DNA of 64,000 bases from Acutalibacteraceae bacterium (GCA_045616765.1 JAZLHL010000012.1:1756-65755), one strand, 5' to 3'. Shown: positions 6,289 to 53,750, numbered from the stretch's first letter. Notes: generated by a model not told the origin, from the sequence alone. A program made the numbers and translations.

Positions 6289-6295
6289 ATAAGTA

Positions 6296-6337: not shown

Positions 6338-8605
6338 TCACACAAACTGTGAAATGGTATTCACAAGCTTGTTTATGTTTATGGGCTTTGAAATATGCGC
6401 ATCCATTCCGGCTTCAAGTGCCTTTTTCTTATCCTCATCAAAGGCGTTGGCGGTCATTGCAATTATCGGTATATGCACATTCTGCGGGTCGGGTATGGTG
6501 CGAATTTCACGCGTAGCCATATAGCCGTCCATAATCGGCATCTGAATATCCATAAGAATTAGGTCAAAATACTTCTCGCGCGAATGTATCATTTCGGTGC
6601 ATATTTCAACAGCCTTTGTACCGTCATCGGCTTCAACGATTTCCATACCGAATTCGCTTAAAATATCACAGGCAATTTCGCGGTTAAGCTCGTTATCCTC
6701 AACAAGCAGCACCTTTTTGCCGTTGAGTACCGATGCATCGGCTTTGGCGGCTTCTTCGGTCTTTGCGGTTACCTTGTCGGTAATTCTGAAATCAATGTAA
6801 ACCGTAAACTCCGAGCCCTCACCGAGCTTACTCTTAACATCTATTTTGCCGTGCATAAGGTCAATGAGCTGCTTGGTTATAGCCATACCGAGACCCGTAC
6901 CCTGAATACCCTTTGTGGATGCCGTCGTCTCGCGTGAGAAGGACTCAAATATGTGGCGCTGGAATTCCTCGCTCATACCGATGCCGTTGTCGGCAATTTT
7001 GAACATAAAGCTCGCACAACCCGGCTCCTTTGCGGGAAGCTCGCTTATGGTGTAAACCACCTTGCCGCCGGGGTTCGTGTACTTCATCGCATTGTTGAGA
7101 ATATTCATCATAATACGGTTAAGGCGCAATTCATCGGCAAGAATGTATCTGTGAGTTATTTTGTCGAAATTCCTTACGAACTCTATATTTTTCGCCGTTG
7201 AAGTAGGCTCGGCAATATCGCAGAGATTATGTGATGATTCGATAATATCAAGCGGCTGTTCATCTATTGTAACCTTGCCGCTTTCCACACGCGCCATATC
7301 AAGCACATCGTTTATCAGCGACAACAGATGCGTGCCGGATTTTTCAACATTTTCAAGGCAGTTTTCGGCTTTTTCGGAATCATCAATATGCTTTTTTGCC
7401 ATTGATGTATAGCCGATTATGGCATTCATCGGCGTGCGGATATCGTGGCTCATATTGAACAGGAACGATGTCTTCTGACGGTTTGCATAGTCTGCCGCTT
7501 CGCGCGCATTCTGCAATTCAAGCTCGCGCTGCTTTGCCCTTTCGCAATTCGCTATGCCGAGCACGACATTGCCCTGCTCCTCCTGAAACGCAAAATTAAA
7601 TCTGTACCATATCTTTTTATCCTTATCGCGAAGCTGAATATCAATATAAGGTGAGTGACCGTTTTTCATCTGCTGCATAAGCGGCTCACGCCTTGCCATT
7701 GCAATGAAATCGTCTATTTCATCCTCGGGGATGACTATGTGCATAATGGCATCGAAAGTGTGCGGATTAAGCGAGCCATCCGGTCCCACAAGGTTCGCAA
7801 ACTGCTTAAAGATACCCGCAATTTTATAAACCTTCATTTCATTTGTTTCGTTATCTATGTAGCAAACAAAGTCGTGCTTTGACGAAAGTATTGAAATAAT
7901 TTCGTAACTGCGGTATTCATCCTTGGTATCATCGTGGGATTTTTCGTAGACCTTGAAATACAAAATGATTGCCACTGATATAATGGAGCCGAAATATGTG
8001 AACGGAAGTCCCGGGGGAACAAGCATCTGAATCGTATTGAACACAAGCGACGGAATTATATAGAATATCTGCCAGAAATATTTTCTTTTCAGGAATTTGT
8101 CACTCGTTTTAAGGCAGGCAATTAGTGAAAGCAGGCAGCCCCACAAGCTGTAAATATATGTAATACCGGGATGCAGAAACTGAAACGCACCTCTGTAATA
8201 TTCGCCGTTTTCATCAAAGCCGAAAATAAGCCCCGTTTTAACGGATGTGAGCGCAATAAGGCTTGTAACTATTGTTATTGCAAGCACAAAACCCTCCACC
8301 CAGCGCGACGGCTTGAATTTTTCCGGCAGGGCTTTCAATATATACTTAAACCACAGCAGACCGATATATGTTGTGGCAAAAAAGTAAACCGAGTTGCTTA
8401 CTTTACTCAGAAACAGATACTGCTCTTTGCCGTTTATAAAGGGCCACACCGAGTCAAACAAGCACGAGCAAACGAGTATTATGAGTATTGCGGAAAGCGG
8501 ATCGAATCTGTTCATGGGCTTGACCTTTTTATTGGCAATAAAAAGACCTATGAGCAGCGCCGTACACATCAGCAGTGATTCAACATAAATTGCCAGTGAA
8601 TTCAT
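6338..8605 (-). CDS. Hybrid sensor histidine kinase / response regulator with a multi-TM N-terminal domain
   Basis: The H-box is FLFNMSHDIRTPMNAI. The N and G boxes are NILNNAMKYT and GTGLGMAI. The C-terminal receiver is KVLLVEDNELN...DLILMDIQMPIMDG. The N-terminal roughly 220 aa are hydrophobic. Confidence 0.9.
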   Translation of the reverse strand: MNSLAIYVESLLMCTALLIGLFIANKKVKPMNRFDPLSAILIILVCSCLFDSVWPFINGKEQYLFLSKVSNSVYFFATTYIGLLWFKYILKALPEKFKPSRWVEGFVLAITIVTSLIALTSVKTGLIFGFDENGEYYRGAFQFLHPGITYIYSLWGCLLSLIACLKTSDKFLKRKYFWQIFYIIPSLVFNTIQMLVPPGLPFTYFGSIISVAIILYFKVYEKSHDDTKDEYRSYEIISILSSKHDFVCYIDNETNEMKVYKIAGIFKQFANLVGPDGSLNPHTFDAIMHIVIPEDEIDDFIAMARREPLMQQMKNGHSPYIDIQLRDKDKKIWYRFNFAFQEEQGNVVLGIANCERAKQRELELQNAREAADYANRQKTSFLFNMSHDIRTPMNAIIGYTSMAKKHIDDSEKAENCLENVEKSGTHLLSLINDVLDMARVESGKVTIDEQPLDIIESSHNLCDIAEPTSTAKNIEFVRNFDKITHRYILADELRLNRIMMNILNNAMKYTNPGGKVVYTISELPAKEPGCASFMFKIADNGIGMSEEFQRHIFESFSRETTASTKGIQGTGLGMAITKQLIDLMHGKIDVKSKLGEGSEFTVYIDFRITDKVTAKTEEAAKADASVLNGKKVLLVEDNELNREIACDILSEFGMEIVEADDGTKAVEICTEMIHSREKYFDLILMDIQMPIMDGYMATREIRTIPDPQNVHIPIIAMTANAFDEDKKKALEAGMDAHISKPININKLVNTISQFV

Positions 8606-8914
8606 AAAACGCCCTCCTGATATTTTTTTAACAAATTAACCGTCAAAAAACGGCTGCCGTAAAAAACAGCAGCCGAAAAAAGCACATTATGTGCGCATTG
8701 TATAATAATTCGTATTATAGAAATACATCTTCATATGTACAACTCCCATTTGTTTCGCATAACGAAACGCATTAATATCATTATACCCTTTTAAATTTTA
8801 AATTCAATATGAATAGTTGTTAAAAATTTGTTCATTTCTTTATATATTTTACACAATGAATTGCACCGATTGTAGAAAACTTTTATGTAAAATTTGAACA
8901 ATGCCGCAAAGTTC

Positions 8915-8954
8915 GAAAAAAGCCGAGTGTCCTCAAAAACACTCGGCTTTTTAT
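8915..8954. terminator. Bidirectional intrinsic terminator (ends the PfkB-kinase operon)
   Basis: AAAAAA-AGCCGAGTGT-loop-ACACTCGGCT-TTTTAT. Confidence 0.8.
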
Positions 8955-8958
8955 TATT

Positions 8959-9070
8959 TAAACGGCGTTTCTGCGCTTTCCTCTTTTTTTAAAAAAAGAT
9001 GCAGAAGCGTCGTTCTTCGCCCGCAAGGCGTATATGGATACGTCAAGGGCGAAAACGGCGTTTCTGCGCT
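8959..9070. repeat. Small dispersed repeat element, family B (copy 1)
   Basis: AAACGGCGTTTCTGCGCTT occurs twice, at 8959-8977 and 9052-9070. The two copies flank an inverted GCAGAAGCGTCGTT. The same architecture is seen at 23393-23495. Confidence 0.6.
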
Positions 9071-9073
9071 TTT

Positions 9074-10150
9074 TTACCTTTTAACGCGCGCGTTGCCGTT
9101 CCAGATACTCCATATCTGTTCCTCATCGGCAGGCTGCGCATAGTCCGTAAGGAATGTGGTGGCAAGTGCGCCGGAAGCCCAGCCGAACTGAATCTGCTTT
9201 TCGGCTGACCACCCCTTGAGAACGGCGTAGAGAAGACCGCCCACAAAGCCGTCACCGCCGCCGATTCTGTCAAGCACGGTGATTTCGCGCGGCTCAACGA
9301 CCTGCCACTCATCGCCCGCAAGCATAATGGCACCCCAGAGGTGGCAATTTACGCTCTTGACCTGACGAAGCGTGGTGGCGAATACCGATGTATCGGGAAA
9401 TTCCTTTTTTACTCTTGTGATCATCTCTTTAAAGGAGTCGATTTTTGAAGCGAGATCCTTGCCGCCCGCTTCGGGACCTTTTATGCCGAGCGCAAGCTGG
9501 AAATCCTCCTCGTTGCCGACGAGAATATCCGCAACAGATGCGATTTCGGTGAATATCTCACGAAGCTCCTGCTCCCTGCCCTCCCAGAAAGTAGCGCGGT
9601 AGTTTAGGTCGAAAGAAATAACCGTACCGTACTTCTTTGCGGCTCTTGCAAGCTCAAGGCAGAAAATGCTCGTTTCGTGCGAAAGTGCGCAGACAAGTCC
9701 GCTCATGTGCAGGATCTGCACGCCCTCGGTACCGAAAATGCGGTCGAGGTCAAAATCATTTATATTGAGTGTTCTGCCGACCTCGCCCGCTCTGTCATTG
9801 TGAACGCGCGGGCCTCTTGAGCCGTAGCCGGAATCGGCAATATTGAACTGATGACGGTAGCCCCACGGTCCGCCCTGCGGTACATCCTTACCCTCAAATT
9901 CCATATTTCTTGAACGCAGGTCGGATTTTATGAACTGCGCTATGGGGCTGCCCTCAACGAATGTGGTAAGCACCTTTACGGGCAGACCGAGGTATGACGA
10001 AATGCTTGCAACATTTGTTTCGGCAGAGGTCGCCTGCATAAAGAACATATTTGAAGCCGCTACGGGCTGACCGCTCTGCGGACAGATGCGAACACCCATA
10101 CTTGTGGGCACTACAAGTGCGTATTTGCAATTTTCTTTTAACTGTTTCAT
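9074..10150 (-). CDS. PfkB-family sugar(-acid) kinase (KdgK-like)
   Basis: The 358-aa product has a C-terminal DRIGGGDGFVGGLLY, the PfkB ATP/anion-hole motif. An AAGGAG RBS is present. Confidence 0.85.
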   Translation of the reverse strand: MKQLKENCKYALVVPTSMGVRICPQSGQPVAASNMFFMQATSAETNVASISSYLGLPVKVLTTFVEGSPIAQFIKSDLRSRNMEFEGKDVPQGGPWGYRHQFNIADSGYGSRGPRVHNDRAGEVGRTLNINDFDLDRIFGTEGVQILHMSGLVCALSHETSIFCLELARAAKKYGTVISFDLNYRATFWEGREQELREIFTEIASVADILVGNEEDFQLALGIKGPEAGGKDLASKIDSFKEMITRVKKEFPDTSVFATTLRQVKSVNCHLWGAIMLAGDEWQVVEPREITVLDRIGGGDGFVGGLLYAVLKGWSAEKQIQFGWASGALATTFLTDYAQPADEEQIWSIWNGNARVKR

Positions 10151-16206: not shown

Positions 16207-16292
16207 ACTGCAAAGCAAACAACATCCGCCCCGCATTCGGCGCGTGTTGATAAAGACGTTTTTCAATGTGTCTTGTTACGCGCCGAAAACGA

Positions 16293-16461
16293 AATAAATC
16301 CCCGGCGGGATTTGTGAAATGCGCTTCGCGCGTGAAATTGCCCTTCGGACAGTGAAATGCCTGCGGGCGTAAGTGGATTTATTTCATTTCACATTGCGAA
16401 GCAATATTTCACAATCTGCGAAGCAGATTATTTCACATTTGCCGCAAGGCAAATATTTCAC
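16293..16461. repeat. Array of 7-mer GTGAAAT (x3) and inverted ATTTCAC (x4), each followed by a short GC hairpin
   Basis: GTGAAAT occurs at 16314, 16332 and 16352. ATTTCAC occurs at 16386, 16406, 16430 and 16455. Intervening hairpins include ATTGC-GAA-GCAAT and AATCTGC-GAA-GCAGATT. Confidence 0.7.
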
Positions 16462-16536
16462 TTCTCGGAAACTATACATAATTTCAATTATATATAGTTT
16501 CCCTGCTTGCAATGGTGCGGGACATATACAAACGAA

Positions 16537-26836: not shown

Positions 26837-27235
26837 TGTCCATACCTCCTTTTTTGATAGCCGCAAAATGCGGCTCCTTGCGGGGGCGAATGCCCCACCG
26901 CGGCAAATGCCGACGGAACGCAGAGTAGGTACGGGTATTAAGAAAACAAAAAACCGAGCACACCGGGCACGAAACCGCACCCGCTTGCTCGCGGAAAACA
27001 CATAACTGCCGATAAAAGCAGGCCTTCATCGGTTTATATGCGCAACATAAACCGGAATAACAAAAATCATTCCGTCACGCAAAAATATGTGTGAACAGAC
27101 CTACGTTCCGGAGGCTGTTCTGTTCCGCTGATATTCGGATAATTGCTACTTCGCCCGTGTCCGCTGCTACTGCCGGATTCCATCTATCTGTCACACTCCT
27201 TATATTAGTATTGGCATTTCAAACGAAAATACCTG
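26837..27235 (-). promoter_or_regulatory. Roughly 400-nt structured 5' leader of mgtE containing an internal intrinsic terminator (candidate riboswitch/attenuator, class not recognised)
   Basis: Several hairpins are present. The terminator is GAGCA..CGGGUGC-loop-GUGCCCG..UGCUC followed by GGUUUUUUGUUUU, at about 26945-26993. That is roughly 110 nt before the start codon. Confidence 0.55.
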
Positions 27236-27242
27236 CATAGCT

Positions 27243-27271
27243 ATAATATACCTCAAATTGCAATTTGTCAA
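27243..27271 (-). promoter_or_regulatory. SigA-type promoter of mgtE
   Basis: On the minus strand: TTGACA (27271-27266), a 17-nt spacer, then TATTAT (27248-27243). Confidence 0.65.
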
Positions 27272-27490
27272 TAATCCGAGTGAACTATTGCACTGAAAGA
27301 AACAATATGAAAAAAGGTTGCTGTCTGAGGGTGCCGATCAACTGCTTACAAATTGTTAGCAGTTGAAAATGAGAGCTACTGACGGTACAATCATTTTGTC
27401 GGTTTCAACGAAAATTCTATTAAGAATCATCTATCTATCACAAATATGGCAGATATACTTACTTCGTAATAATTAGGACTGTTTGGGACA

Positions 27491-27515
27491 TAAAAACACA
27501 CCGCCGAAGCGGTGG
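27491..27515 (-). terminator. Intrinsic terminator ending the SPFH-TIR operon
   Basis: On the minus strand: CCACCGC-UUCG-GCGGUGUG followed by UUUUUAU, 32 nt after the stop of the 275-aa gene. Confidence 0.7.
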
Positions 27516-27546
27516 AAAGACTTGCAATATTTTTCACTCATTACTT

Positions 27547-28374
27547 TTAATCAAAAATTTTATTTTTTAATAATTGTACAACTTGTAAAACAGCAGCGCT
27601 CATTTCAAATTTGCCTTTAATTGCATCATTTCGCAAACGATTAAACTCAAACATTTCATCATCTGAAAGCATTAATGATAACATAGGAAAAATCTTATTA
27701 TAAAGCATAGAAATATCTTCAGAGAGTCTTCTGACAGCATTTATATCTGAATCTCGGCAATTTGTTATGTTGGAATACTTTACACTTTTTCTTATAAAAT
27801 CAATTGTATCACGATATGTATCTATTCTTATGTCTGTTTCACTTGATTTTTGAATCGCATAACCATTTTCAAGAAAAACAGATGCAAGATAATCTGCACT
27901 ATCGTAAATTTGAACTCGTGTTTTTTTATTTTCCGAAACACAAATACCCTCAATTTCATTTGTTACATATATCAAATCTTTATCTATTTTTTCGCGGTAA
28001 TAATCAGCAAGAATATCTATTGCGTTTTCGACCAATTGCTTTATACGGGCTTCAGATGCATTTGTTCCTGCAGATGCAAATATAAGGCAATGCTCAATAA
28101 TTCGCGTTTTGACCTTTTCGCGTTCTTCCGATTCACCCCAAAAGTACTGATTCAAGTCATCATTTAGATTATTTTGGATATAATCACTGATACCACCAAA
28201 ATCGATTTCCTCATCAAATGCGGCATCGAAATTTCGTACATTTTGTTTTTCTAAATAAGCGCTCAGACGATTTCGGGCACTTGTTTTATTTTTAAAATCA
28301 ACTATTTTATCTTTGATAACGCTCAATCCTATATCTGCAATAAACTCTATTATTCTGTTTTTTCCTAAACTCAT
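27547..28374 (-). CDS. Hypothetical 275-aa protein, no domain recognised (last gene of the TIR operon)
   Basis: The ORF is long, uninterrupted and AT-rich. Its ATG directly abuts the TAA of the upstream mini-ORF (TAAATG). The product looks predominantly helical by eye, with no TM segment or signal peptide. Confidence 0.7.
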   Translation of the reverse strand: MSLGKNRIIEFIADIGLSVIKDKIVDFKNKTSARNRLSAYLEKQNVRNFDAAFDEEIDFGGISDYIQNNLNDDLNQYFWGESEEREKVKTRIIEHCLIFASAGTNASEARIKQLVENAIDILADYYREKIDKDLIYVTNEIEGICVSENKKTRVQIYDSADYLASVFLENGYAIQKSSETDIRIDTYRDTIDFIRKSVKYSNITNCRDSDINAVRRLSEDISMLYNKIFPMLSLMLSDDEMFEFNRLRNDAIKGKFEMSAAVLQVVQLLKNKIFD

Positions 28375-28521
28375 TTAATCATCCTTTATTATTGTTTTTC
28401 TTTTTACTAATGCTTCTTCAGCATAAGTTTCACTAGTGCCGCAATATTTGTACTCAACAACAGTTACGCCATCGATAACATCCATGTTGCCGCCACACAC
28501 TTTGCATTTAAAAATTGACAT
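28375..28521 (-). CDS. 48-aa degenerate zinc-ribbon mini-protein, paralogue of the TIR protein N-terminus
   Basis: Below the ORF-track size cutoff. Hand translation gives MSIFKCKVCGGNMDVIDGVTVVEYKYCGTSETYAEEALVKRKTIIKDD. 23 of its first 29 aa match the TIR protein start, and 72 of 87 nt match. One of the four Cys is lost (C24->Y). Confidence 0.55.
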   Translation of the reverse strand: MSIFKCKVCGGNMDVIDGVTVVEYKYCGTSETYAEEALVKRKTIIKDD

Positions 28522-28534
28522 AATATTACTTGTT

Positions 28535-31500
28535 TCACTTGGTTTTGATATTTTTCCAACCGCCTACATCAAATTGGCCGTGATAATAATCTTTATTACC
28601 GGTATATTTCGTAGTAACAACGGTACCATCAGATTTCAAGCCGACCGTATGTTTATAAGTCGTCGAAACAGCAACTACATCAGTCCATTCATCGACATCG
28701 CATTCACCGCAATAAAAATCTTCATCTCCTGTATATTTCGTAGCAACAACGGTACCGTCGGATTTTAAGCCGACCGTATGAGAAGCACCTGCAGAAATGG
28801 CAACAATATCCATCCATTCATCGACATCGCATTCACCGTTACTATTAACACCGCAAGCAACAACAGTGCCGTCGGATTTTAAGCCAACCGTATGTAATGA
28901 ACCTGCAGAAACGGCAACTATATCTTTCCAGTCGCCGACATCGCATTGACCGTAATCATTAGCGCCGCAGGCAACAACGGTACCATCAGATTTCAAGCCG
29001 ACCGTATTATACCAGCCTGCAGAAACGGCAACTATATCCGTCCATTCATCGACATCGCATCGACCGTTACCATTACTACCACAAGCAACAACGGTACCGT
29101 CTGATTTCAAACTGACCGTGTGAAACTGACTTGCCGAAACGGCAACAATATCCGTCCACACATCAACATCACATTGACCACTATAGTTTTCTTTATTACC
29201 AGTATATTTAGTTGCAACAACAGTACCGTCGGATTTTAAGCCGACGGTATGATCTCTACCAGCCGAAACGGCAACTATATCTTTCCAACCGCCGACATCG
29301 CATTGACCGTAATAATTATCGCCGCAGGCAATAACGGTGCCGTCGGATTTCAAGCCGACCGTATTATACCAGCTTGCCGAAACGGTTTCGCGAAAAGCAT
29401 TTTTATCCCATAAGTCGATTGATTTTTGCTTTGCATCCTTATAACCGCTTGCCGCACCAAATGCGACGGCGGCTTCATATTGTTTACGATCTTTTTCCAG
29501 AATACTCGCTTTGTTATAATAGCACTCTTTGAGTTTATCCGAACTATCTTTATATTCACCGATTATCGTAAAAGCGGCTATAGCTTCTTCGTATTTTTCG
29601 TCATTCATCAAACTGACGGCATTGTTATATTTGCATTCTGTAATTCTGTCAGCACTATCTTTATATCCGTTCGTTGCTTCAAATGCCGAAATCGCTTCGC
29701 TATATTTTCTGTTATTCATCAAAGCAACAGCATTTTTATATCTACCGTTCGGAATTATTACCGTTGTCAAAACTATAAGGAAGGCAATACAGGTAACGGT
29801 AATTGGTGTAACTATTGCAATAATTTTTTTTCGTTTTTTTGCTGCCGTTTCATCCGCTATGCGTTTTTCTTCGGCTTTTCGTGCAGCTTTTAGTCGGTCG
29901 GATTCTTCCTTTGCTTTGATTCCCTCGATTTTCTTTTGGCAAGCGTAAATCTGTTCGACTGCATCTTTCCAACCGGAAATCGTCATAAACACTTCGATTG
30001 CCTCTTCATAAGAAGCAATCCTTTCGCCGGTCATCTTATTCTTTGCAGAAGCATAAACAGCATCCTTACGGCGAATCTCGGCTTTTTCAAGGCACTGCTT
30101 TGCAAATGCATCGGCATCCTTCCAGCTCGGTATCATCTTAAAACTTTCGGCAGCGCATTCAAAAGAGTCGGCATTATTTTCTTCCATTTTTCTCAATGCC
30201 GACTGATATATATCATTCTTGCGGCAAATTTCGGCTTTTTCAAGGCACTGCTTTGCAAGCACATCGGCATCCTTAAAGCCATTTATTTTATCAAATTCCG
30301 CTGCGGCATATTTAAACTCACTTTCGGATTTTGCAATACCGAAAAGTTCTGTGCCTTTGTCATAAATCACCTGCTGTTTTGCCGTTTCGTTGCGCTCACG
30401 GATATAATCATTATCCGCTTTCAGTTTTTCGGCAAGTCCGGAATTAAGACTGCACACTTTTACATAATATTTGTTGTTATCAAAGGGTTGGGCTAAATCT
30501 TTAAGTACCTCTTCGGTATGTACTTTTAAATAAGCCATCAGTTTGCCAAGATAAGCGCGTGCGTTTTCCGGCTCAATATCAAGCACTCGTTCGCAATACT
30601 CGTCAGCTGACTGCCATTCTTCGTCTTTCAGAAAAATAAACACTCGTTTAAGAAGAGATTCAACTGTGGGGTTATTGCGTTGTTCTCTTATTACTACTCT
30701 TTCGATTTCTGCCTTTTTTTCTCTGTCGAATATTTTATCAATGCCGCGCAACAAATCCTGCATAAAGCCGAGTTTGCTCATATCCTGCGACTGTAAACCC
30801 TTGAACCCTTCGGGCATATCGTAAGCATCCATACCCTTAAAGCAGGGAATGAGTACCTTTGACTTGTCTTTAGCCATAAGCTTAATAAATCTTGACCATT
30901 CATTCTTGACCCAAACGGCGTTGTAATATTCATAATCGGTACCGATTGCAAGCATAAGCTTTGCCGAATTGAGTGCGGCAAATATATAAGGCTCATACTG
31001 CTGACCTAATTTATCTTCAAGCGTAATTCTTGAAAAGAATACTTTGTAGCCTTTTTTCGTGAGTTCATCATAAATGTCCTGCGCAATGACGGAATCGGGC
31101 GTTCTGCCACCGTTTCTATCGGTTTCTTTGTAACATATAAAAATATCATAAGGTTTTTCGCTACTGCTTATCGACAGTATTTCACCCATAATGCGGTCAA
31201 TCTCTTTTGCCTGTTCCTGATAAACAACACGCGCGCCGAGGTCGGCATATTCAAGGGCAAGTTCACAATTTTCATCTTTACGCAGTTTTTCAAAACTTGC
31301 GCGGTGAACGGTAGGAATTTTGGCGCCCGTTGCCGGGTCATCAACATATTCTATACCATAATTGCAAAGGCAAAGCCCCCAATAAGCCTCGGCTTCTTCA
31401 GGAAACTCCGCGATTATCTGCTCATAGATAGCACCCGCCTTGTCAAATTCACTGCTCATACGCAGACGGTTTGCACGGTTATATAAATTGAGTTTTTTCT

Positions 31501-31615
31501 CGTCGTTGACCTCAGGCACAGTCTGCTTTGTTCCGCAATATTCACATTCAACAACGGTTATGCCGTCGGTAACATCTATATTGCCGCCGCACATTTTGCA
31601 TTTAAAGATTGACAT
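28535..31615 (-). CDS. Transmembrane TIR-domain protein: zinc ribbon - TIR - helical/TPR-like repeats - TM - 7x RCC1-like repeats
   Basis: The start was trimmed to ATG 31615 (GAGGAG RBS), giving MSIFKCKMCGG...ECEYCGT. The TIR-like block is YDIFICYKETD...VFFSRITLEDKLG...AVWVKNEW (aa about 155-295). The TM segment follows KKRKK: IIAIVTPITVTCIAFLIVLTTVII (aa about 598-622). Seven HTVGLKSDGTVVACG..GQCDV..W.DIVAV repeats follow. Confidence 0.85.
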   Translation of the reverse strand: MSIFKCKMCGGNIDVTDGITVVECEYCGTKQTVPEVNDEKKLNLYNRANRLRMSSEFDKAGAIYEQIIAEFPEEAEAYWGLCLCNYGIEYVDDPATGAKIPTVHRASFEKLRKDENCELALEYADLGARVVYQEQAKEIDRIMGEILSISSSEKPYDIFICYKETDRNGGRTPDSVIAQDIYDELTKKGYKVFFSRITLEDKLGQQYEPYIFAALNSAKLMLAIGTDYEYYNAVWVKNEWSRFIKLMAKDKSKVLIPCFKGMDAYDMPEGFKGLQSQDMSKLGFMQDLLRGIDKIFDREKKAEIERVVIREQRNNPTVESLLKRVFIFLKDEEWQSADEYCERVLDIEPENARAYLGKLMAYLKVHTEEVLKDLAQPFDNNKYYVKVCSLNSGLAEKLKADNDYIRERNETAKQQVIYDKGTELFGIAKSESEFKYAAAEFDKINGFKDADVLAKQCLEKAEICRKNDIYQSALRKMEENNADSFECAAESFKMIPSWKDADAFAKQCLEKAEIRRKDAVYASAKNKMTGERIASYEEAIEVFMTISGWKDAVEQIYACQKKIEGIKAKEESDRLKAARKAEEKRIADETAAKKRKKIIAIVTPITVTCIAFLIVLTTVIIPNGRYKNAVALMNNRKYSEAISAFEATNGYKDSADRITECKYNNAVSLMNDEKYEEAIAAFTIIGEYKDSSDKLKECYYNKASILEKDRKQYEAAVAFGAASGYKDAKQKSIDLWDKNAFRETVSASWYNTVGLKSDGTVIACGDNYYGQCDVGGWKDIVAVSAGRDHTVGLKSDGTVVATKYTGNKENYSGQCDVDVWTDIVAVSASQFHTVSLKSDGTVVACGSNGNGRCDVDEWTDIVAVSAGWYNTVGLKSDGTVVACGANDYGQCDVGDWKDIVAVSAGSLHTVGLKSDGTVVACGVNSNGECDVDEWMDIVAISAGASHTVGLKSDGTVVATKYTGDEDFYCGECDVDEWTDVVAVSTTYKHTVGLKSDGTVVTTKYTGNKDYYHGQFDVGGWKNIKTK
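28538..29380 (-). repeat. Seven tandem coding repeats (38 or 43 codons) encoding RCC1-like beta-propeller blades
   Basis: The units start SASWYNTVGL, SAGRDHTVGL, SASQFHTVSL, SAGWYNTVGL, SAGSLHTVGL, SAGASHTVGL and STTYKHTVGL. Long stretches are identical at DNA level, for example GGTACCGTCGGATTTTAAGCCGACCGTATG. Confidence 0.85.
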
Positions 31616-31628
31616 ATGTTTTATCTCC

Positions 31629-32294
31629 TCATTTAAGCAATTTGCACATATTATTTCTTTCCGCAACGATTTCGACAACGTCATCTGCAAGTGTATCGAT
31701 ATTTGCACCGCTGCTTGTTACAGCCGCTGCAAATTCACCGAATTTTACAGACAAACGGTTTTCGACCTCATAAAGTGCTGCATTTGATACGGGGTCAGAT
31801 AAGCTAATTGCTTCATAAACCTTTTTGCAGGCTGCTTTTGCTTCAGGTGATTTTGCTTTTTGAGAAAGGGTAAGGGCATTGGCAGTCAATGACTTGATAA
31901 ACGAGGTTTTAACCTTGACCTTTTCATCAACCTCGCTGACAATTTCGGCGGCAGCTTGTGCCTTTAACACGGCGATAACAGTAATCAGCAGCACAACGAG
32001 GCAAATTACGGCACCGAGCATTCTGCCTATGGTTAAAAATACCGAAACAAGGCTGACAACAGCAGTAATAATAAGCCCTATGTAACTGACTTTGACAGTT
32101 GCGATACCGTAAAATACTTTTGTAAGATTTTCTTCTTTGAGTGCAAAATATGCACAGCCGAGTTGCACACAAAACGCAAGCACGGTAAGAGCAAGCGCTA
32201 TGTAATTGACACCGGGCAAAACAAGCGATAGCGCAAAATAAATGATAAGTGCTGCTGCCCATGCAACCGCATAAATTTTAAAATTCTTTTTCAT
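31629..32294 (-). CDS. Membrane protein (4 predicted TM helices plus a roughly 100-aa soluble helical C-terminal domain), unknown function
   Basis: The 221-aa product has four hydrophobic stretches in aa 8-125. A GAGAGGG RBS is present. The stop lies 13 nt before the TIR gene start. Confidence 0.75.
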   Translation of the reverse strand: MKKNFKIYAVAWAAALIIYFALSLVLPGVNYIALALTVLAFCVQLGCAYFALKEENLTKVFYGIATVKVSYIGLIITAVVSLVSVFLTIGRMLGAVICLVVLLITVIAVLKAQAAAEIVSEVDEKVKVKTSFIKSLTANALTLSQKAKSPEAKAACKKVYEAISLSDPVSNAALYEVENRLSVKFGEFAAAVTSSGANIDTLADDVVEIVAERNNMCKLLK

Positions 32295-32309
32295 AATCTG
32301 ACCCTCTCG

Positions 32310-33722
32310 TTATATTCCCCCGCATTCAAAGCAGAATTTTGCACCCTCGGGCACATCCTTGCCGCATTTCGGGCACGCCGTTACAAATTTGTGACCGCAT
32401 TCAAGGCAAAACTTACCCTTTGCCACGGTTTTGCCGCATTCGGGGCAAACTGTCATTCCGTCTGCAACGGTTTCGATTTTTTCACCGCAGCCGAAGCAGA
32501 ATTTTGCATTTGCGGGAAGCTCTGCGCCGCACTTGGGGCATTTTACGGTGCTTTCGGCGTTCTGCGCGGGTTTACCGTCTGTGCCGAAATCGGGCATCAT
32601 ATTATCCATCTGCCCCATCATAACGCCTGCCATCTTCATACCAGCCATCATGGAGACCATATCCGAAGCAATTCCGCCGCCTGCAGCGCCGCCGCCGCCG
32701 ACAGCCGGACCCATATTGCCGATACCTTCGGCATAGGCTTTCTGCACCTCGGCTTGAATAACATCTTTTTCCGTATAGCCTTTGGCGCGCATTACCTCAG
32801 CCTCGGCTAAGCCGCCGAGCCTTGCCGCCTGTGCTTCTGCCTGTGCTTCAATCACGGTGCGCTCCGCCTCGCGTTTGGCGATTTCGGTCTGTGTGGTCTG
32901 CTTTTCAAGCTCTATTGCTCGGCGTGCTGCCATAACATCGGCCTCCGCCTGAGCCTGGGCAGTGCGTACTGCCGCCTCTGCCTTTGCAACGCGAGTCTGC
33001 AGCGAAATTGTGTGCAGCTCTTTAAGCCGCTTAAAATCGGCATTTTCTTCGGGAAGTACCACTGTTGTAAGATAGAATTCGGGAATTGTAAGGCCGTACT
33101 CCTCAAAGCCGGGGAGTATTTTTTGGTGTAAGGTTGCAGAGAGGCTTTCAAGGTGTTCGTCGATTTCAAGAATATCGAACTCCTCCGCCTTGATTGCCTG
33201 CGAAAGATTTGATTTTACCGCCGTGGAAATGAGCGGACGGAAGCACTGCTGCAGCGATTTTGTAAAGCTTGCGGGCTCACGCTCCCACGCAATGCCGCTC
33301 ATAGTGCCTACAAGCTTTACAAGCAGCTTGCGGCTGTCGCACACCTGCAGATTCAGCGAGCCGCTTGCGCCTATTTCAATAGGAATACCGAAATCAGGGT
33401 CAATGTAACGGATTTTGCTGTCGGTACCCCATTTAAGAGCCATCTGTACGGTCTGATTTATAAAGTAAACCTCGCAGTGGAACGGGGTATCGCCGTCGGT
33501 GGTTTTGTTGAGCAGCTTGCCTAATTTGGGAATATTCTGCGTTTCAAGAGTGTATCTGCCGGGCCCGAACAAATCGAGCGCCTGACCGTTCATAAAGAAT
33601 ATTGCTTCCTGACTTTCGTGAACTATAAGCTGTGTGAGGGAATTAAAATCCTCGCACGGGTGTTTCCAGATAAATGTTGAATTGTCGCCTTCGTACTTGA
33701 TGATTTCTGCAATTTTTGCCAT
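32310..33722 (-). CDS. SPFH/band-7 family protein (COG4260 / YdjI-like) with three C-terminal zinc ribbons
   Basis: The N-terminus MAKIAEIIKYEGDNSTFIWKHP...LIVHESQEAIFFMNGQ is typical of the Band_7_1 SPFH family. An A/E/Q-rich coiled coil and a Gly/Met-rich linker follow. Three CPxCG...FCxxCG ribbons close the protein. Confidence 0.85.
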   Translation of the reverse strand: MAKIAEIIKYEGDNSTFIWKHPCEDFNSLTQLIVHESQEAIFFMNGQALDLFGPGRYTLETQNIPKLGKLLNKTTDGDTPFHCEVYFINQTVQMALKWGTDSKIRYIDPDFGIPIEIGASGSLNLQVCDSRKLLVKLVGTMSGIAWEREPASFTKSLQQCFRPLISTAVKSNLSQAIKAEEFDILEIDEHLESLSATLHQKILPGFEEYGLTIPEFYLTTVVLPEENADFKRLKELHTISLQTRVAKAEAAVRTAQAQAEADVMAARRAIELEKQTTQTEIAKREAERTVIEAQAEAQAARLGGLAEAEVMRAKGYTEKDVIQAEVQKAYAEGIGNMGPAVGGGGAAGGGIASDMVSMMAGMKMAGVMMGQMDNMMPDFGTDGKPAQNAESTVKCPKCGAELPANAKFCFGCGEKIETVADGMTVCPECGKTVAKGKFCLECGHKFVTACPKCGKDVPEGAKFCFECGGI

Positions 33723-33783
33723 TGGTCCACCTCATATAATTATTATTTAGTCGTAAAAAAACAAAAATATATATTTTTTATAA

Positions 33784-33816
33784 AATACACCGCGGGTTTC
33801 GCACTCGCGGTGTATT
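33784..33816 (-). terminator. Terminator-like hairpin inside the 5' leader of the SPFH-TIR operon (possible attenuator)
   Basis: AATACACCGCG-11 nt-CGCGGTGTATT followed by TTTATAAAAAAT on the minus strand. It lies between the predicted promoter (about 33854-33883) and the start codon at 33722. Confidence 0.45.
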
Positions 33817-33853
33817 CAGCGAATTCTAAACAAGAACTCTTTACTGTGCCCCC

Positions 33854-33897
33854 ATATTACCATTGAACCCTTCGGCAAGTCTTATGCTGCGAGCATA
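33854..33897 (-). promoter_or_regulatory. Predicted promoter of the SPFH-TIR operon, overlapped by the 19-bp operator (copy 1)
   Basis: On the minus strand: AAGACT (33883-33878), an 18-nt spacer, then TAATAT (33859-33854). The operator GTCTTATGCTGCGAGCATA at 33879-33897 contains the palindrome TATGCT-GCG-AGCATA. Confidence 0.45.
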
Positions 33898-34052
33898 ATC
33901 ACAAATTAATAATACGGTTTTTGCCGAAATAATATTTATAAGTGTGCATTCATATTATAAATCGTATTATTCGCATTGTCAAGTGAATTCCGACTACGCG
34001 TTTGTTTAACCGCGCCACCTTACGATTTATGATATAAGTGAGGTGGTATAAT

Positions 34053-34379
34053 ATGTATGTAGATTATAAAGAAGTCGGCAAAAGAATTGCGGCACGGCGC
34101 AAAGAGCTCGGCTTAAAGCAGTGCGAAGTAACAGAGCTTGCCGAACTCAGTGATAAATACCTTTCAAACATTGAACGCGCAACATCGGTGGTGAGCATTG
34201 ACGTGCTTATGAAGCTTTGCAATGTACTCAACGCAACGCCGAATGACTTTTTGCTCGGCTCTACCGGTAATATTGCAGATAAAGCGCGTATAGATTATTA
34301 CGCCGCCAAAATAAACGAGCTTAATGACGACAAGAAAGCGCTTGTTATAGGTTTTATTGACTGGCTGAAAGATTTTTAA
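34053..34379 (+). CDS. XRE-family HTH transcriptional regulator
   Basis: The product begins MYVDYKEVGKRIAARRKELGLKQCEVTELAELSDKYLSNIERA. ATG 34053 follows a GTGAGGTGG RBS. Confidence 0.85.
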   Translation: MYVDYKEVGKRIAARRKELGLKQCEVTELAELSDKYLSNIERATSVVSIDVLMKLCNVLNATPNDFLLGSTGNIADKARIDYYAAKINELNDDKKALVIGFIDWLKDF

Positions 34380-34392
34380 AGCACTTTAATGC

Positions 34393-34430
34393 AACTCTCC
34401 GAACCATTCCCGGCGTTCGGAGAGTTTTTA
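34393..34430. terminator. Bidirectional terminator between convergent genes
   Basis: AACTCTCCGAAC-loop-GTTCGGAGAGTT followed by TTTA. Confidence 0.8.
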
Positions 34431-34436
34431 TAATTT

Positions 34437-35249
34437 TTATACCAAATAATACTCCGTCAACCAACCCATATTGTGCTCATAGCCCTCATAAAACCATGGA
34501 TTATATATCAGCAAAACCTGTTTTGAACCGTTTTGAAGCTCTTTAAACAAATCGGCAAAATCATCGCGAGTGGCGTAAATATACATTGTATCCATATATG
34601 AGCCGCCTTTTGGTGTTACCGAGATGCAGAAGCAAATCGGTTCAAGGTCACTGTAGCCCCAGTTATAATATGTATCAAGCTCAGCCGTACCCTCTACATA
34701 CACATTTTTACCGACATAGCTGAACGGAGCGTATTTGAAATCATTGATGTTAATATTGCTTTTCTTCTTATCTTCGATCAGTTGTTTATTCTTTTCGCTT
34801 TCTTTATGTGCTTCAACCGCATCAAGAACTACCTGCGGCGGAGTTTTGGTATCTGTGCTGATTTTATCATATAAATGAGTTCCTTCTATAAAGTTATCAT
34901 GCACCAATACTGTATTTTTACTGGTGCCGTCATCAGAAATAAGTTCTATGTAACCTTTCAGATTATACCTTACAGTGCCGCTCCAACCATTAATAAGGGC
35001 ATTATTGCCGTTGTTTATATATTCTGCAATCAAATAATTATTAATAGAGTAACTTTTGTAGGATTCGCCGTTGATAACCAAAACATCTCCGCTGTAATCG
35101 CCGTACCAGGTCCCTTTTAAATCATTTATCATATCGGACTCGGTTGAATATTTCTTTGTATTACTCGTATCAACACATCCCGAAAGCAGTGTGCACATCA
35201 TAGTCAAGACAATTAAAAGTGAAATTGCGGATATTACTTTCTTTTTCAT
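34437..35249 (-). CDS. Lipoprotein, unknown function
   Basis: The signal peptide carries a lipobox: MKKKVISAISLLIVLTMMCTLLSGC. An AAGGGGGA RBS is present. Confidence 0.8.
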   Translation of the reverse strand: MKKKVISAISLLIVLTMMCTLLSGCVDTSNTKKYSTESDMINDLKGTWYGDYSGDVLVINGESYKSYSINNYLIAEYINNGNNALINGWSGTVRYNLKGYIELISDDGTSKNTVLVHDNFIEGTHLYDKISTDTKTPPQVVLDAVEAHKESEKNKQLIEDKKKSNININDFKYAPFSYVGKNVYVEGTAELDTYYNWGYSDLEPICFCISVTPKGGSYMDTMYIYATRDDFADLFKELQNGSKQVLLIYNPWFYEGYEHNMGWLTEYYLV

Positions 35250-35293
35250 TAAAAATCCCCCTTAATTTTTGTGTAACCATATTCCATTGAATA

Positions 35294-35440
35294 TTAAACC
35301 CTGTTGCAGCTCCACCAGACTATTCTTGCACCGGGGAACGATGCGGCAATAAGCTTTTTCGCCTCGATACTTGACTGAGCCTTGACCATCTGCTCGGTGC
35401 GCACACCGTTTACCGAAAATACGCAGCGGTACATTTGCAT
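35294..35440 (-). CDS. Unannotated 48-aa small protein upstream of the lipoprotein gene
   Basis: Hand translation gives MQMYRCVFSVNGVRTEQMVKAQSSIEAKKLIAASFPGARIVWWSCNRV. A strong AGGGGGTGAG RBS lies directly upstream. A perfect TATAAT (minus strand, 35466-35461) lies about 20 nt further up. Confidence 0.5.
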   Translation of the reverse strand: MQMYRCVFSVNGVRTEQMVKAQSSIEAKKLIAASFPGARIVWWSCNRV

Positions 35441-35460
35441 ACTCTCACCCCCTTTTTGCG

Positions 35461-35532
35461 ATTATAGCGCAATGAAAGTGGTTTGTCTTATGCTGCGAGC
35501 ATATTGAAATTATTTTACTTTTGTGTTAATAT
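35461..35532. promoter_or_regulatory. Divergent promoter pair sharing the 19-bp operator (copy 2)
   Basis: The operator GTCTTATGCTGCGAGCATA lies at 35485-35503. The minus-strand promoter is AAGACA (35489-35484), a 17-nt spacer, then TATAAT (35466-35461). The plus-strand promoter is TTGAAA (35504-35509), a 17-nt spacer, then TGtTAATAT (35527-35532). Confidence 0.55.
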
Positions 35533-35554
35533 CGGCTTGTCAGGGGGAGTGAAT

Positions 35555-35977
35555 ATGCACAAGGATACCTCAAAAATGCTCGAAGAGCTCAAGGCTTGTA
35601 CTGAATTTGAGCGTTTTTATGATGAGAATAAAAAATACGCCGCGGATTTAACGCTCGCGGAATATATTGAAACGCTTTTAAAAGAAAAAAAGCTTTCAAA
35701 GGCAGCTGTGATAAAGGATGCGGAAATGAGCGAGGTTTACGCCTACCAGATAATGTCCGGTTTACGAATCCCGGACCGCAAAAAGCTCCTGTGTCTCGCA
35801 TTCGGTATGAAGCTCAATCTTGAAGAAACGCAGAAAATGCTTAAATGCACCGGCTACGCGCCGCTTTATGTGAAAAATACATTTGACTGCATTGTGATTT
35901 ACGGCTTGTGCAACGGCTTCACCGTGCCCGATGTGAACGAAAAGCTTTACGATTTCGGATTGGAGACGCTCGGATAA
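35555..35977 (+). CDS. XRE-like HTH domain protein (140 aa)
   Basis: The segment ...LSKAAVIKDAEMSEVYAYQIMSGLRIPDRKKLLCLAF... is HTH-like. ATG 35555 follows a GGGGGAG RBS. The stop overlaps the next start (TAATG). Confidence 0.7.
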   Translation: MHKDTSKMLEELKACTEFERFYDENKKYAADLTLAEYIETLLKEKKLSKAAVIKDAEMSEVYAYQIMSGLRIPDRKKLLCLAFGMKLNLEETQKMLKCTGYAPLYVKNTFDCIVIYGLCNGFTVPDVNEKLYDFGLETLG

Positions 35978-36729
35978 TGCAAAACAAAACCATTTGCCCG
36001 TATTGCGGCGCAGCCCTGCAGGAAAATGCCTCGTTTTGCCTGCACTGTATGAAAAGTCTTGATGAAAAAACCGAAATAAAAAAGAAAAAATCAGCTCCGA
36101 AAAAGCTGATTGTTACTGTCGGTATTGCTGCCGCCGTCTGCATTGCCGCGGTATGTATAATAATTGCCGTAATCGGCAACAAGCCAAAACCCATATGCAC
36201 GCCGGATGAGTTCATTGCCGCCGCTCAGGCTTCAACCGCAAAACTTGACTGCGCAGAGCTGTGGCAGCCTGCCGATTTAGTGCAGACCCATTACAATAAA
36301 AAAGAAAACGACAGTGTTTATAACACAAAGTGTTCGCTATGTGATGCAGGCGTTTCCGTAATATTCAGAAACGGCGGCGAGGTGGTGGATATTGCGCTTT
36401 GCGATATCCGTGAAAGCGACCTTGAAAATGCATATGTTATAAGCGAAAGCGCGCTTTCTGCGGCATTCGGGTATTATCAGGTCGAGCTTGCCGATATGCT
36501 GCACGATAAAAGCGCATATCCGCGCTTTGATTTTGAAAAGCCGTTTGAAGAATACTTTACCGATGTGCTCAAACGCACAGACAGATACAATGCTCTCGCC
36601 GAAAGCGGTGATATTTCCACCGAATTTTTTGAGGCGGTAACGGAAGACGGCGAAACTCTGCTGTACTTTTTGACAGAGCATACCGAAAGCAACGAAACAC
36701 TGTACGATTTATATTTTGAAATACAATAA
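35977..36729 (+). CDS. Zinc-ribbon / single-TM membrane protein with an extracytoplasmic domain
   Basis: The zinc ribbon is MQNKTICPYCGAALQENASFCLHCM. After KKKKSAPKK comes the TM segment LIVTVGIAAAVCIAAVCIIIAVI, then a roughly 170-aa domain. Confidence 0.75.
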   Translation: MQNKTICPYCGAALQENASFCLHCMKSLDEKTEIKKKKSAPKKLIVTVGIAAAVCIAAVCIIIAVIGNKPKPICTPDEFIAAAQASTAKLDCAELWQPADLVQTHYNKKENDSVYNTKCSLCDAGVSVIFRNGGEVVDIALCDIRESDLENAYVISESALSAAFGYYQVELADMLHDKSAYPRFDFEKPFEEYFTDVLKRTDRYNALAESGDISTEFFEAVTEDGETLLYFLTEHTESNETLYDLYFEIQ

Positions 36730-36734
36730 AAAGA

Positions 36735-36771
36735 TTGTGACGAAACAAAAAATCTTCGTCACAACTTTTTT
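36735..36771. terminator. Bidirectional terminator
   Basis: TTGTGACGAA-loop-TTCGTCACAA followed by CTTTTTT. The left flank is A-rich. Confidence 0.8.
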
Positions 36772-37475
36772 CACAGAGCCGATTTGACCGCAGCCACACT
36801 TTGATAACGCGCCGCAGGGTCAATACTTGTGCATTTCAGCACGATTTTGCCTGCTCTGCCGTCTGCAAGGCATTCACTCGGGTGGCGCTGCGTAAGCATA
36901 ACATTTATAAGCACGCCCAATGCGTAAATATCGGCGCGGCTGTCAGTCTGCGAAATACCAAGCTGCTCGGGCGCGGCATAGCCCACGGTACCAAGCACCT
37001 CAGTATCGGCGGAAGCTGCGGTTTTATATATGCGCGAGGCATTAAAATCAATAAGCTTTACCGTTCCGTTTTTATCTACAATGATATTTTCGGGCTTTAT
37101 ATCGCGGTGAACAAAGCCGTTTTTATGCATAATATCAAGCGCATCGCATACGGCGGATATTACTGTTTTCATTCCGTGATATGTATATTTACCGCTTTCA
37201 AGCACCTCGGCGACTGTCACGCCGTCAATGTATTCCTCAATAACCGCCTGCCCGTTATCCGTTTTGTAAACATCGTATATAACAGGCAGATTTTCAAAAA
37301 CAATGCCTTTAAAGAATGAATATACGGGCACCTCGGTTTCATATAGCCGCAAAACGAGCTTTTTATCTAATGCGCGGTGATTAAGCAGCAGCACTCGGCA
37401 ATCGTTTTTTTGCGACAACACGCGGCAAAGATAATATTCCGCCTTTAACTGCTCATAAAATTCGTCATTCGTCAT
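36771..37475 (-). CDS. Stand-alone Ser/Thr protein kinase catalytic domain with a degenerate N-lobe
   Basis: HRDIKPENIIV, DFN (in place of DFG) and GTVGYAAPEQ are present. No GxGxxG loop is visible. The position expected for the VAIK lysine reads LVLRL. Confidence 0.8.
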   Translation of the reverse strand: MTNDEFYEQLKAEYYLCRVLSQKNDCRVLLLNHRALDKKLVLRLYETEVPVYSFFKGIVFENLPVIYDVYKTDNGQAVIEEYIDGVTVAEVLESGKYTYHGMKTVISAVCDALDIMHKNGFVHRDIKPENIIVDKNGTVKLIDFNASRIYKTAASADTEVLGTVGYAAPEQLGISQTDSRADIYALGVLINVMLTQRHPSECLADGRAGKIVLKCTSIDPAARYQSVAAVKSAL

Positions 37476-53494: not shown

Positions 53495-53750
53495 CAAAAG
53501 TTGAAAATATTTACAATATAAAAAATAATGCTCCACCCCGATATACGGGATGAAGCATATACTCCACGGTTCCACCCGAATTACGGCTTGCGCCGTCACT
53601 CAAACGCCTTAACGCGGCATACGGCGGCACTTGTTTCGCGCCGCACTCGGAAGTGGTATTCGGGTAATGCGTTTTCGCACCTTTCACCTGCCGGTGCGCT
53701 CTCTGAAAAACGGAATTTACCGTACTGTCTTCGTCAACGATTTTATAATA
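53495..53750 (-). promoter_or_regulatory. T-box riboswitch leader (threonine) upstream of thrS
   Basis: On the minus strand: an AGAGAG / GGTGAAA stem-I signature. ACC triplets are present in ...CATTACCCGAATACCACTT... The T-box sequence is AATTCGGGTGGAACCGTGG (53582-53564). The terminator is CUUCAUCCCG-UAUA-UCGGGGUGGAG followed by CAUUAUUUUUU. Confidence 0.8.

Follow-up and report, generated by a model that had tools for sequence, protein, structure and literature searches.

A widespread SPFH, four-helix and TIR gene module with a receptor-like layout in Clostridia: defence or envelope sensing?

What is the function of a gene string that places a flotillin-like SPFH protein next to a TIR domain tethered in the membrane? 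The question is raised by a stretch of 64,000 nucleotides from an Acutalibacteraceae bacterium (GCA_045616765.1, JAZLHL010000012.1:1756-65755), called here the window, whose coordinates are used for every feature of this genome. Between positions 27,491 and 33,897 it carries five open reading frames (ORFs), all on the minus strand and separated by 15, 13, 13 and 0 nt; in order, they encode an SPFH protein (P1), a protein with four transmembrane helices (P2, the 4TM protein), a transmembrane protein with a zinc ribbon (ZnR), a TIR domain and RCC1 repeats (P3), and two further products, P4 and P5. A reading made from the DNA sequence alone (the sequence-only reading) had proposed a five-gene functional unit, a candidate TIR-based membrane sensing or defence module. 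The five co-stranded ORFs with gaps of 0-15 nt are all present as it described, and its SPFH, TIR, RCC1 and zinc-ribbon assignments are borne out by significant Pfam profile matches. The conserved unit is smaller, namely three genes, SPFH, 4TM and ZnR-TPR-TIR, which recur together in at least 80 species. The module is apparently a previously undescribed and widespread one, assembled from known domain types and one new protein family in an SPFH-gated, receptor-like layout.

The three-gene unit emerged from an unbiased search in which an alignment of the 4TM protein alone was compared with one genome per GTDB species. This returned 107 relatives, from which 80 loci were kept; their ORFs were mapped by phmmer and clustered all-against-all. 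The loci (referred to by L numbers where one has to be told apart) derive from Oscillospiraceae, Ruminococcus, Lachnospiraceae, Acutalibacteraceae and other Clostridia, as well as from three metagenome-assembled genomes (MAGs) of Chloroflexi and one of Bacteroidota. An SPFH gene is found no more than 4 kb from the 4TM gene at 70 of the 80 loci, or at 77 when families are assigned by clustering, the remainder being mostly truncated contigs; at these 70-77 loci it directly precedes the 4TM gene. One or more ZnR-TIR genes lie within 8 kb of the 4TM gene at 59/80 loci, and 36/80 harbour two to four of them. The operon is headed at 33/80 loci by a gene that encodes a ribbon-helix-helix (RHH) protein of about 65 residues with the motif SxRxPKDMxxDxDxxAxxTGRTRNE (33 of L008-L087; e.g. 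L073:7830-8042), while the window has no RHH gene and a divergent XRE gene instead. Six of the 80 loci include a gene for a protein of about 310-340 residues with a weak SIR2_2/AbiH-like match, located between the TIR and SPFH genes (e.g. L005:11889-12881, L031, L037:7208-8137, L075 and L077), and the L005/L006 module comprises an additional 1427-residue gene and adjoins a phage-type integrase. Beyond these species, TIR-RCC1 homologues of P3 are very numerous in gut metagenomes; five of six contigs with such a homologue carry alongside it a Band_7_1/DZR gene and a gene for a protein of about 230 residues without Pfam family, and one IMG/VR contig has the same module layout. The co-occurrence of SPFH, 4TM and ZnR-TIR genes, which the sequence-only reading had put forward as a check, is thus a matter of conserved neighbourhood across many genomes.

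The composition of the module is not rigid. Five loci with full 10-kb flanks (L009, L014, L016, L017 and L064) contain the SPFH and 4TM genes without any TIR gene, and the SPFH-4TM pair therefore has a role of its own. In the Ruminococcus/Clostridia loci L010-L013 (e.g. L010:2308-3846) the ZnR-TIR protein is replaced by a protein of about 500 residues composed of a zinc ribbon, multiple transmembrane helices and a DUF6591 domain. It follows from both variants that the SPFH and 4TM proteins are the core, and that their usual partners are membrane proteins headed by a ZnR, most often of the TIR type; this pattern of domains points to the zinc-ribbon head as the hallmark of clients that the SPFH-4TM pair can exchange for one another.

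Two of the related loci show further arrangements. At L035 (6825-8284) genes for a DUF4869 protein and an AAA ATPase, both with weak LmuB-like matches, are inserted between the TIR and SPFH genes and may constitute a separate small defence pair. L088 contains the closest relatives of the SPFH and 4TM genes of the window (77% DNA identity); here, a gene for a 23S_rRNA_IVP four-helix bundle precedes a 552-residue TIR protein without RCC1 repeats, and a SLFN_AlbA_2/HATPase_c_4 gene follows (L088:5269-5664 and 7663-9099).

P1 (470 residues; 32310-33722, minus strand) begins with an SPFH domain that matches Band_7_1 over residues 30-226 (E 1.2e-37, 130 bits against a cut-off of 24). An Ala/Glu-rich coiled coil, a Gly/Met-rich low-complexity linker and three C-terminal zinc ribbons (residues ~390-470) follow; DZR/Zn_ribbon profiles match over the three CxxC...CxxC units, and the DNA encoding this region contains a 33-nt repeat in three copies. 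A hydropathy scan detects no transmembrane or other hydrophobic segment, and a sequence search of the PDB with P1 gave no match. P1 is a soluble, cytosolic, flotillin-like scaffold.

P2 (221 residues; 31629-32294, minus strand) was modelled with AlphaFold2 (AF2) from 50 homologues at a predicted local distance difference test score (pLDDT) of 83.9. The model has four transmembrane helices, as the sequence-only reading had it, and the fourth runs on into the cytoplasm as a long helix that leads to a bundle of three helices; the count of four rests on the model, as the hydropathy scan marks two segments only. Since P2 starts with MKKNFK and has an even number of helices, the bundle is predicted to be cytoplasmic, on the same side of the membrane as P1 and the TIR head. 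A conserved motif, CKKVYEAxRYSDP(M/V)S, is located at its C-terminus. The protein belongs to no Pfam, NCBIfam or significant PADLOC family (there is a stray match to LmuB, E 0.0039), Foldseek searches with the model found no significant fold match in the PDB or BFVD (best E 0.096 and 1.1, respectively), a PDB sequence search with the family returned only spurious helical matches such as ribosomal protein S20, and none of its 154 homologues is named. Judged by its predicted structure, P2 is a new protein family without known structural relatives.

P3 (1026 residues; 28535-31615, minus strand) opens with a conserved MSIFKCK start preceded by a GAGGAG Shine-Dalgarno sequence, in an ORF that stays open up to a GTG at 31708. 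From the N-terminus it comprises a CxxC...CxxC zinc ribbon, a TPR-like helical domain, the TIR domain, helical repeats, one transmembrane helix, juxtamembrane TPR-like repeats and a seven-bladed RCC1 propeller. The TIR domain (residues 158-281; 30773-31144) matches TIR_2 with 42 bits against a cut-off of 28 (E 1.6e-10). The membrane helix (residues ~598-620; 29756-29824) was located by the hydropathy scan and is preceded by KKRKK, and the propeller (28556-29383) is made up of seven RCC1_2 repeats (E 2.5e-48) encoded by DNA that includes the repeat families D1 and D2. Hydropathy and the positive-inside rule support the earlier proposal of a cytoplasmic TIR domain and an extracellular propeller: P3 is predicted to be a type II protein, N-in/C-out, with the ZnR-TPR-TIR head in the cytoplasm and the juxtamembrane repeats and propeller outside, the outward position of the latter following from the single N-in helix preceded by KKRKK.

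The head is the constant part of these proteins. Over the first ~300 residues, P3 has 54-70% identity with 46 ZnR-TIR proteins taken from different loci, and all 46 share the four zinc-ribbon cysteines as well as W235, V236, N238, E239 and W240. Glu239 (codon 30899-30901), in the sequence WVKNEW, aligns with the glutamate of WCLMEL in the flax L6 TIR domain and is 97% conserved across 95 sequences; this position is presumably that of the catalytic glutamate in enzymatic TIR domains. The TIR domain of P3 can accordingly be classed as catalytic-type and as a putative NADase. A PDB profile search with the TIR heads yielded mostly spurious WD40/TPR repeat matches and one weak match to a Toll-like receptor TIR domain (E 0.017).

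Beyond the head, variation prevails. ZnR-TIR paralogues within one locus are 57% identical in the head and 21% identical beyond it, and among 91 TIR proteins a transmembrane helix follows the TIR domain in 59 and RCC1 repeats are present in 33. A close relative of the window, L090, shows how such differences are distributed along the chromosome. In DNA sequence the two are 87% identical over 6.6 kb of upstream flank. Across the genes for the lipoprotein and the XRE regulator, the promoter, the leader and the opening ~420 nt of the SPFH gene, identity stands at 91.7%, and from there on it falls to ~64%. The L090 SPFH protein is near-identical over ~120 residues and then diverges, ending in SHOCT instead of zinc ribbons, with the breakpoint at about codon 120-140; in the L090 TIR protein, the head with its zinc ribbon and the membrane helix are kept and the ectodomain is different. 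The cassette has thus been replaced allelically, at a breakpoint that lies within the SPFH gene, which is the pattern expected for loci under diversifying selection.

From the composition, topology and conservation of the module we infer the following mechanism. P1 would oligomerise at the cytoplasmic side of the membrane, anchored there by P2 and, perhaps, by P3 through its zinc-ribbon head, and this assembly would hold the TIR receptors inactive and separate from one another. Something that happens at the surface of the cell would then act on the variable ectodomain, be it a phage or other foreign ligand, or damage to the envelope or membrane by which the SPFH assembly is upset. The TIR heads would then cluster and cleave NAD+, resulting in its depletion or in an ADP-ribose (ADPR)-type signal, and the outcome would be growth arrest or death of the affected cell, as in abortive infection. 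Individual steps have precedents: in Bacillus subtilis, SamI restrains SamGH signalling and thereby provides a precedent for an SPFH brake (bioRxiv 10.64898/2026.02.06.704340); SPFH cages are described as enclosing client membrane proteins; and oligomerisation activates TIR NADases, while a membrane tether restrains the amoeba TirC (PMC13142454).

An immune, abortive-infection-like role of the SPFH-scaffolded TIR module is our leading interpretation, with a probability of roughly 0.5. A role in biological conflict is made plausible by the catalytic-type TIR domain, the diversifying tandem paralogues, the cassette replacement, the RHH and XRE regulators and the occasional SIR2/AbiH-like genes, and further by the L005 copy beside an integrase, the copy on an IMG/VR contig and the AbiGii-like relatives of P5 described below. 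The sequence-only reading had not recognised the combination as a named system, and this holds: none of the five proteins corresponds to a PADLOC v2 model and no such system appears in the literature searched. In that search, which covered part of the journals, no paper linked SPFH/Band-7 proteins with TIR domains in a module of this kind, and a study of gut-microbial TIR NADases does not mention RCC1, transmembrane or zinc-ribbon architectures (PMC9092222).

The closest named TIR systems, all antiphage, are Thoeris (ThsB/ThsA), TIR-STING, and SpbK along with other TIR NADases that consist of a single protein. With these the module shares a TIR_2 domain with a catalytic-type glutamate and the presence of several TIR paralogues per locus, reminiscent of multiple ThsB genes, and the SIR2-like gene found in the operon at 6/80 loci is a further likeness. 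It differs in that the TIR domain is tethered to the membrane and joined to an extracellular sensor, and in the SPFH and 4TM partners, which are not known in those systems. The NCBIfam model ThcB4 scores 15.7 bits on P3 against a cut-off of 220, no SIR2, Macro or SLOG match indicative of a ThsA-type effector is found in the five proteins, and no STING sensor-effector is encoded in the window; membership of Thoeris fails on both of its defining components.

Several observations weigh against an immune role. The sequence-only reading had asked, as a check, whether such genes lie in defence islands. PADLOC detects 20 families in 140 proximal neighbours compared with 46 in 140 distal ones, a crude test that shows no enrichment of known defence genes beside the module. 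The locus is chromosomally syntenic with L090 and not a fresh insertion, and a tblastn search with the TIR head against 50,697 isolate phage and 72,556 plasmid records came back empty. The PADLOC v2.0.0 models match neither P1 nor P3, P4 or P5, and P2 only through the stray LmuB hit; the Thoeris ThsB/TIR models among them have no match to P3 at E <= 0.1. No downstream effector is evident in the window, and the docking of zinc ribbon to zinc ribbon, by which P1 might hold the TIR head, is speculative: the L090 SPFH protein carries SHOCT in place of zinc ribbons, though its TIR partner keeps the ribbon. Loci with the SPFH-4TM pair and without a TIR gene point in the same direction. Because defence genes are not enriched and the locus is syntenic in a relative, a defence role is something we infer and do not claim as established.

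The main competitor is a non-immune role in envelope-stress or surface sensing, which we regard as a real though distinctly less probable option. Here, the module would be an elaborated relative of SamGHI/YdjGHI: a sensor complex in the membrane would be tuned by the SPFH protein, the propeller would respond to the state of the cell wall or to an environmental or host glycan, and the TIR domain would make a nucleotide second messenger or adjust NAD+ levels, so that the cell adapts its physiology and is not killed. The make-up of P1 speaks for this: YdjI/SamI is described as an SPFH protein that has no membrane anchor and carries a low-complexity linker as well as a zinc finger at its C-terminus (bioRxiv 10.64898/2026.02.06.704340), and P1 with its Band_7_1 domain fits that published description. 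In both systems, moreover, the SPFH gene is accompanied by genes for two membrane proteins, and one of these proteins has one or more N-terminal zinc ribbons and a single transmembrane helix, as does YdjG. The chromosomal, syntenic and non-mobile nature of the locus, the lack of enrichment of known defence genes near it and the existence of SPFH-4TM pairs without TIR would likewise be at home in a stress-sensing system.

The likeness to YdjGHI ends with these features. YdjH is a TPM-phosphatase-domain protein and YdjG combines two zinc ribbons with a YpeB/NTF2-like domain (PMC11237479), whereas P2 is a new 4TM protein with a helical bundle and without a TPM match in Pfam, and P3 has one zinc ribbon and TIR, TPR and RCC1 regions in place of the YpeB/NTF2-like domain, which makes the correspondence an analogy of layout only. 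The gene order is different as well, and the ZnR partners occur as diversified tandem paralogues. Judged by domain content, P2 and P3 are not counterparts of YdjH and YdjG. The context is also unlike that of a stress operon of the PspA or sigma-W type: there is no pspA in the window operon, and the only families present at more than six loci are SPFH, 4TM, TIR and RHH proteins, as counted from the clustering and not from a PspA profile. The proposal of a YdjGHI-like scaffold therefore holds for the SPFH protein and fails for the partner without a TPM domain and the missing pspA. Arrays of up to four TIR paralogues, hypervariable tails and cassette replacement would be unusual for housekeeping stress sensors. 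To our knowledge, bacterial TIR domains that keep the catalytic glutamate have so far been found to act in conflict systems, which also counts against a stress-sensing role.

That all five genes, P4 and P5 included, form one functional operon-encoded system, as first proposed, is improbable. It has on its side the shared strand, the gaps of 0-15 nt, a single promoter and a single terminator, and P5 has an AGGA ribosome-binding site of its own and abuts the stop codon of P4. The two distal genes tell a different story. P4 (48 residues; 28375-28521, minus strand) is for its first 87 nt (28436-28522) 84% identical to the 5' end of the P3 gene (31530-31616; repeat D4), and the similarity ends at about codon 30. 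It has Tyr at the position of the invariant third cysteine (Cys24), and there is no Shine-Dalgarno sequence in the 13-nt spacer AACAAGTAATATT ahead of its start codon. P4 is best read as the dead 5' stump of a second ZnR-TIR paralogue; of the degenerate mini zinc-ribbon gene in the sequence-only reading, the degenerate ribbon stands and the functional gene does not, given the 87-nt duplication, the lost cysteine and the missing ribosome-binding site.

As a separate observation, the first ~87 nt of ZnR-TIR genes are ~84% identical in DNA sequence even between loci and genomes (31530-31616 and 28436-28522 in the window, L088:5712-5791), and these stretches could serve as recombination anchors for swaps of TIR-receptor cassettes.

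P5 (275 residues; 27547-28374, minus strand; GC content 0.32) matches no Pfam family and had been described as an orphan, which it is not. Exhaustive HMMER searches recovered 253 relatives where a word-indexed search returned P5 itself only. Its residues ~8-165 (to ~220 by BLASTP) match the N-terminus of AbiGii-like proteins of ~575 residues with 35-41% identity. The C-terminal half of these relatives matches the PADLOC AbiGii model; P5 shares their N-terminal region and lacks the AbiGii-like domain, with no AbiGii toxin domain found by PADLOC or Pfam. Elsewhere the N-terminal domain is fused to NB-ARC/TPR, LRR, WD40 and AAA modules, some of these proteins being STAND-like, and the architectures of the relatives recovered are unrelated to the module. 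An AF2 model from the single sequence reached a pLDDT of 40 and is unusable. Two ways of explaining P5 away were discarded: it is not a truncated AbiGii gene, as no AbiGii-like remnant lies downstream, and P4 and P5 are not one gene read through the in-frame TAA, as P4 arose from the duplication of a 5' end and the Met of P5 itself is where its homologues begin.

It also counts against the five-gene system that P5 has no homologue in any of the 80+ related loci, where different genes occupy the position of P4 and P5, and that the GC content falls from ~0.42 to 0.32 at these two genes. P4 is a decayed duplicate and P5 an AbiGii-related gene that was acquired separately and lies in AT-rich DNA of distinct composition; both are passengers at the locus.

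Still less probable is a role of P3 as a surface or adhesion protein with a non-catalytic interaction TIR, which the SPFH and 4TM proteins would do no more than position in microdomains. RCC1-repeat ectodomains are common in surface proteins of Clostridia, and TIR domains can be pure adaptors, as in animals. However, it is the TIR head and not the ectodomain that is most conserved, with 55-70% identity across families, the glutamate of WVKNEW is invariant, many of the TIR partners lack RCC1 repeats, and some lack a transmembrane helix.

A fortuitous adjacency of unrelated genes, for which no observation speaks, is refuted by the comparative data and has a probability close to nil: genes of all three families lie side by side in one orientation in dozens of species that belong to several Clostridia families, they are also adjacent in the Chloroflexi MAGs L030, L072 and L073, and the SPFH-4TM pair is present in the Bacteroidota MAG L054.

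If the SPFH-scaffolded TIR module does serve immunity, it might go further and represent a bacterial counterpart of Toll-like receptors, in which hypervariable sensors outside the cell are connected by one helix to an enzymatic TIR domain and gated in an SPFH microdomain by the 4TM protein; such outside-in immunity would sense phage adsorption or attack on the surface before, or independently of, DNA entry. We put this forward as a tentative analogy. Like Toll-like receptors, P3 would join an extracellular repeat sensor, one membrane-spanning helix and a cytoplasmic TIR domain, and Toll-like receptors associate with membrane microdomains of the SPFH/flotillin type. The differences are equally clear: P3 has the opposite orientation, with an N-terminal TIR domain in a type II protein, an RCC1 propeller takes the place of leucine-rich repeats, the TIR domain keeps the enzymatic glutamate, and the comparison does not imply that the architecture as a whole has a shared origin. 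Were the analogy to hold, the tandem, recombining ZnR-TIR cassettes would amount to a repertoire of specificities, and bacterial SPFH/flotillin-like proteins would gain a concrete client and a regulatory role. The TIR systems known to us in bacteria sense infection inside the cell; surveillance of the surface would be added to bacterial TIR biology, in a prokaryotic parallel to animal TIR-receptor signalling from membrane microdomains. The module is common in uncultured Clostridia of gut and rumen, where phage defence is poorly charted. Even in an envelope-stress role, the module would carry the newly described SamGHI principle over to a large new clade whose output is enzymatic.

Expression of the module starts from a sigma-70-type promoter (33954-33982, minus strand) with TTGACA and TATAAT boxes 17 nt apart, matching the consensus at 12/12 positions in a region ~92% identical in L090, and the gene string is closed by an intrinsic terminator (27499-27514, minus strand) with the 6-bp stem CACCGC-TTCG-GCGGTG, a UUCG loop and a U tract. 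The sequence-only reading had predicted both, the terminator at about 27500, and also an operator, for which a candidate exists at the level of sequence only: a 20-nt inverted repeat (33947-34040; arms 33947-33966 and 34021-34040, 85% complementary) whose arms overlap the -10 boxes of the divergent operon promoter and of a candidate promoter of the XRE gene. The XRE-family regulator, which contains a helix-turn-helix domain, is a divergent ORF of 113 residues (34038-34379, plus strand; Pfam HTH_3 at 1.4e-08, with HTH_31 and HTH_19) that probably begins, in fact, with the ATG at about 34053, and it holds the same position in L090. The repeat and the gene would fit an autoregulated repressor. 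Between promoter and SPFH gene lies a structured leader of 228 nt (33723-33950, minus strand) with a fold of -60.8 kcal/mol (z = -3.95; none of 200 shuffles as stable), ~92% identical in L090; within it, a terminator-like hairpin of 14 GC-rich base pairs (33784-33816) is followed by a U-rich tract about 60 nt ahead of the start codon. Hairpin and tract may act as an attenuator or as another cis-regulatory RNA of unknown kind; Rfam scans of the whole window and of 27000-34500 found no family in the locus, leader included. Probably, the divergent XRE repressor and the structured leader control expression of the module.

Downstream, the gene string is followed by mgtE, correctly named earlier as an adjoining gene, a GDPD gene and a metallophosphatase gene; on the upstream side are the gene for the XRE regulator, unknown genes of small size and one that encodes a Ser/Thr kinase. 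The earlier description of the block as AT-richer than its flanks applies to its distal end only, as the GC content of 0.32-0.34 at 27-28.5 kb is confined to P4, P5 and the spacer before mgtE, and the SPFH gene is GC-rich (0.51-0.54). The upstream small genes form a block (34437-37475) with ~87-92% DNA identity to L090, comprising genes for a 270-residue lipoprotein-like protein, a 164-residue product, a 273-residue zinc-ribbon membrane protein and a 234-residue Ser/Thr kinase; in L088 the kinase gene is found on the opposite side of the module. Ahead of mgtE is an untranslated stretch of ~390 nt (26857-27271, minus strand) that starts at a near-consensus promoter (27271-27243, TTGACA-17-TATTAT) and matches neither the M-box nor another Rfam family at the gathering threshold. 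Elsewhere in the window, a T-box leader is located at 53543-53746 (minus strand), a lone 5S rRNA at 6173-6289 (plus strand), and two copies of Gut-1 RNA (Rfam RF01706; 67 and 69 bits) point towards each other across 18 nt at 16287-16363 (plus strand) and 16381-16463 (minus strand).

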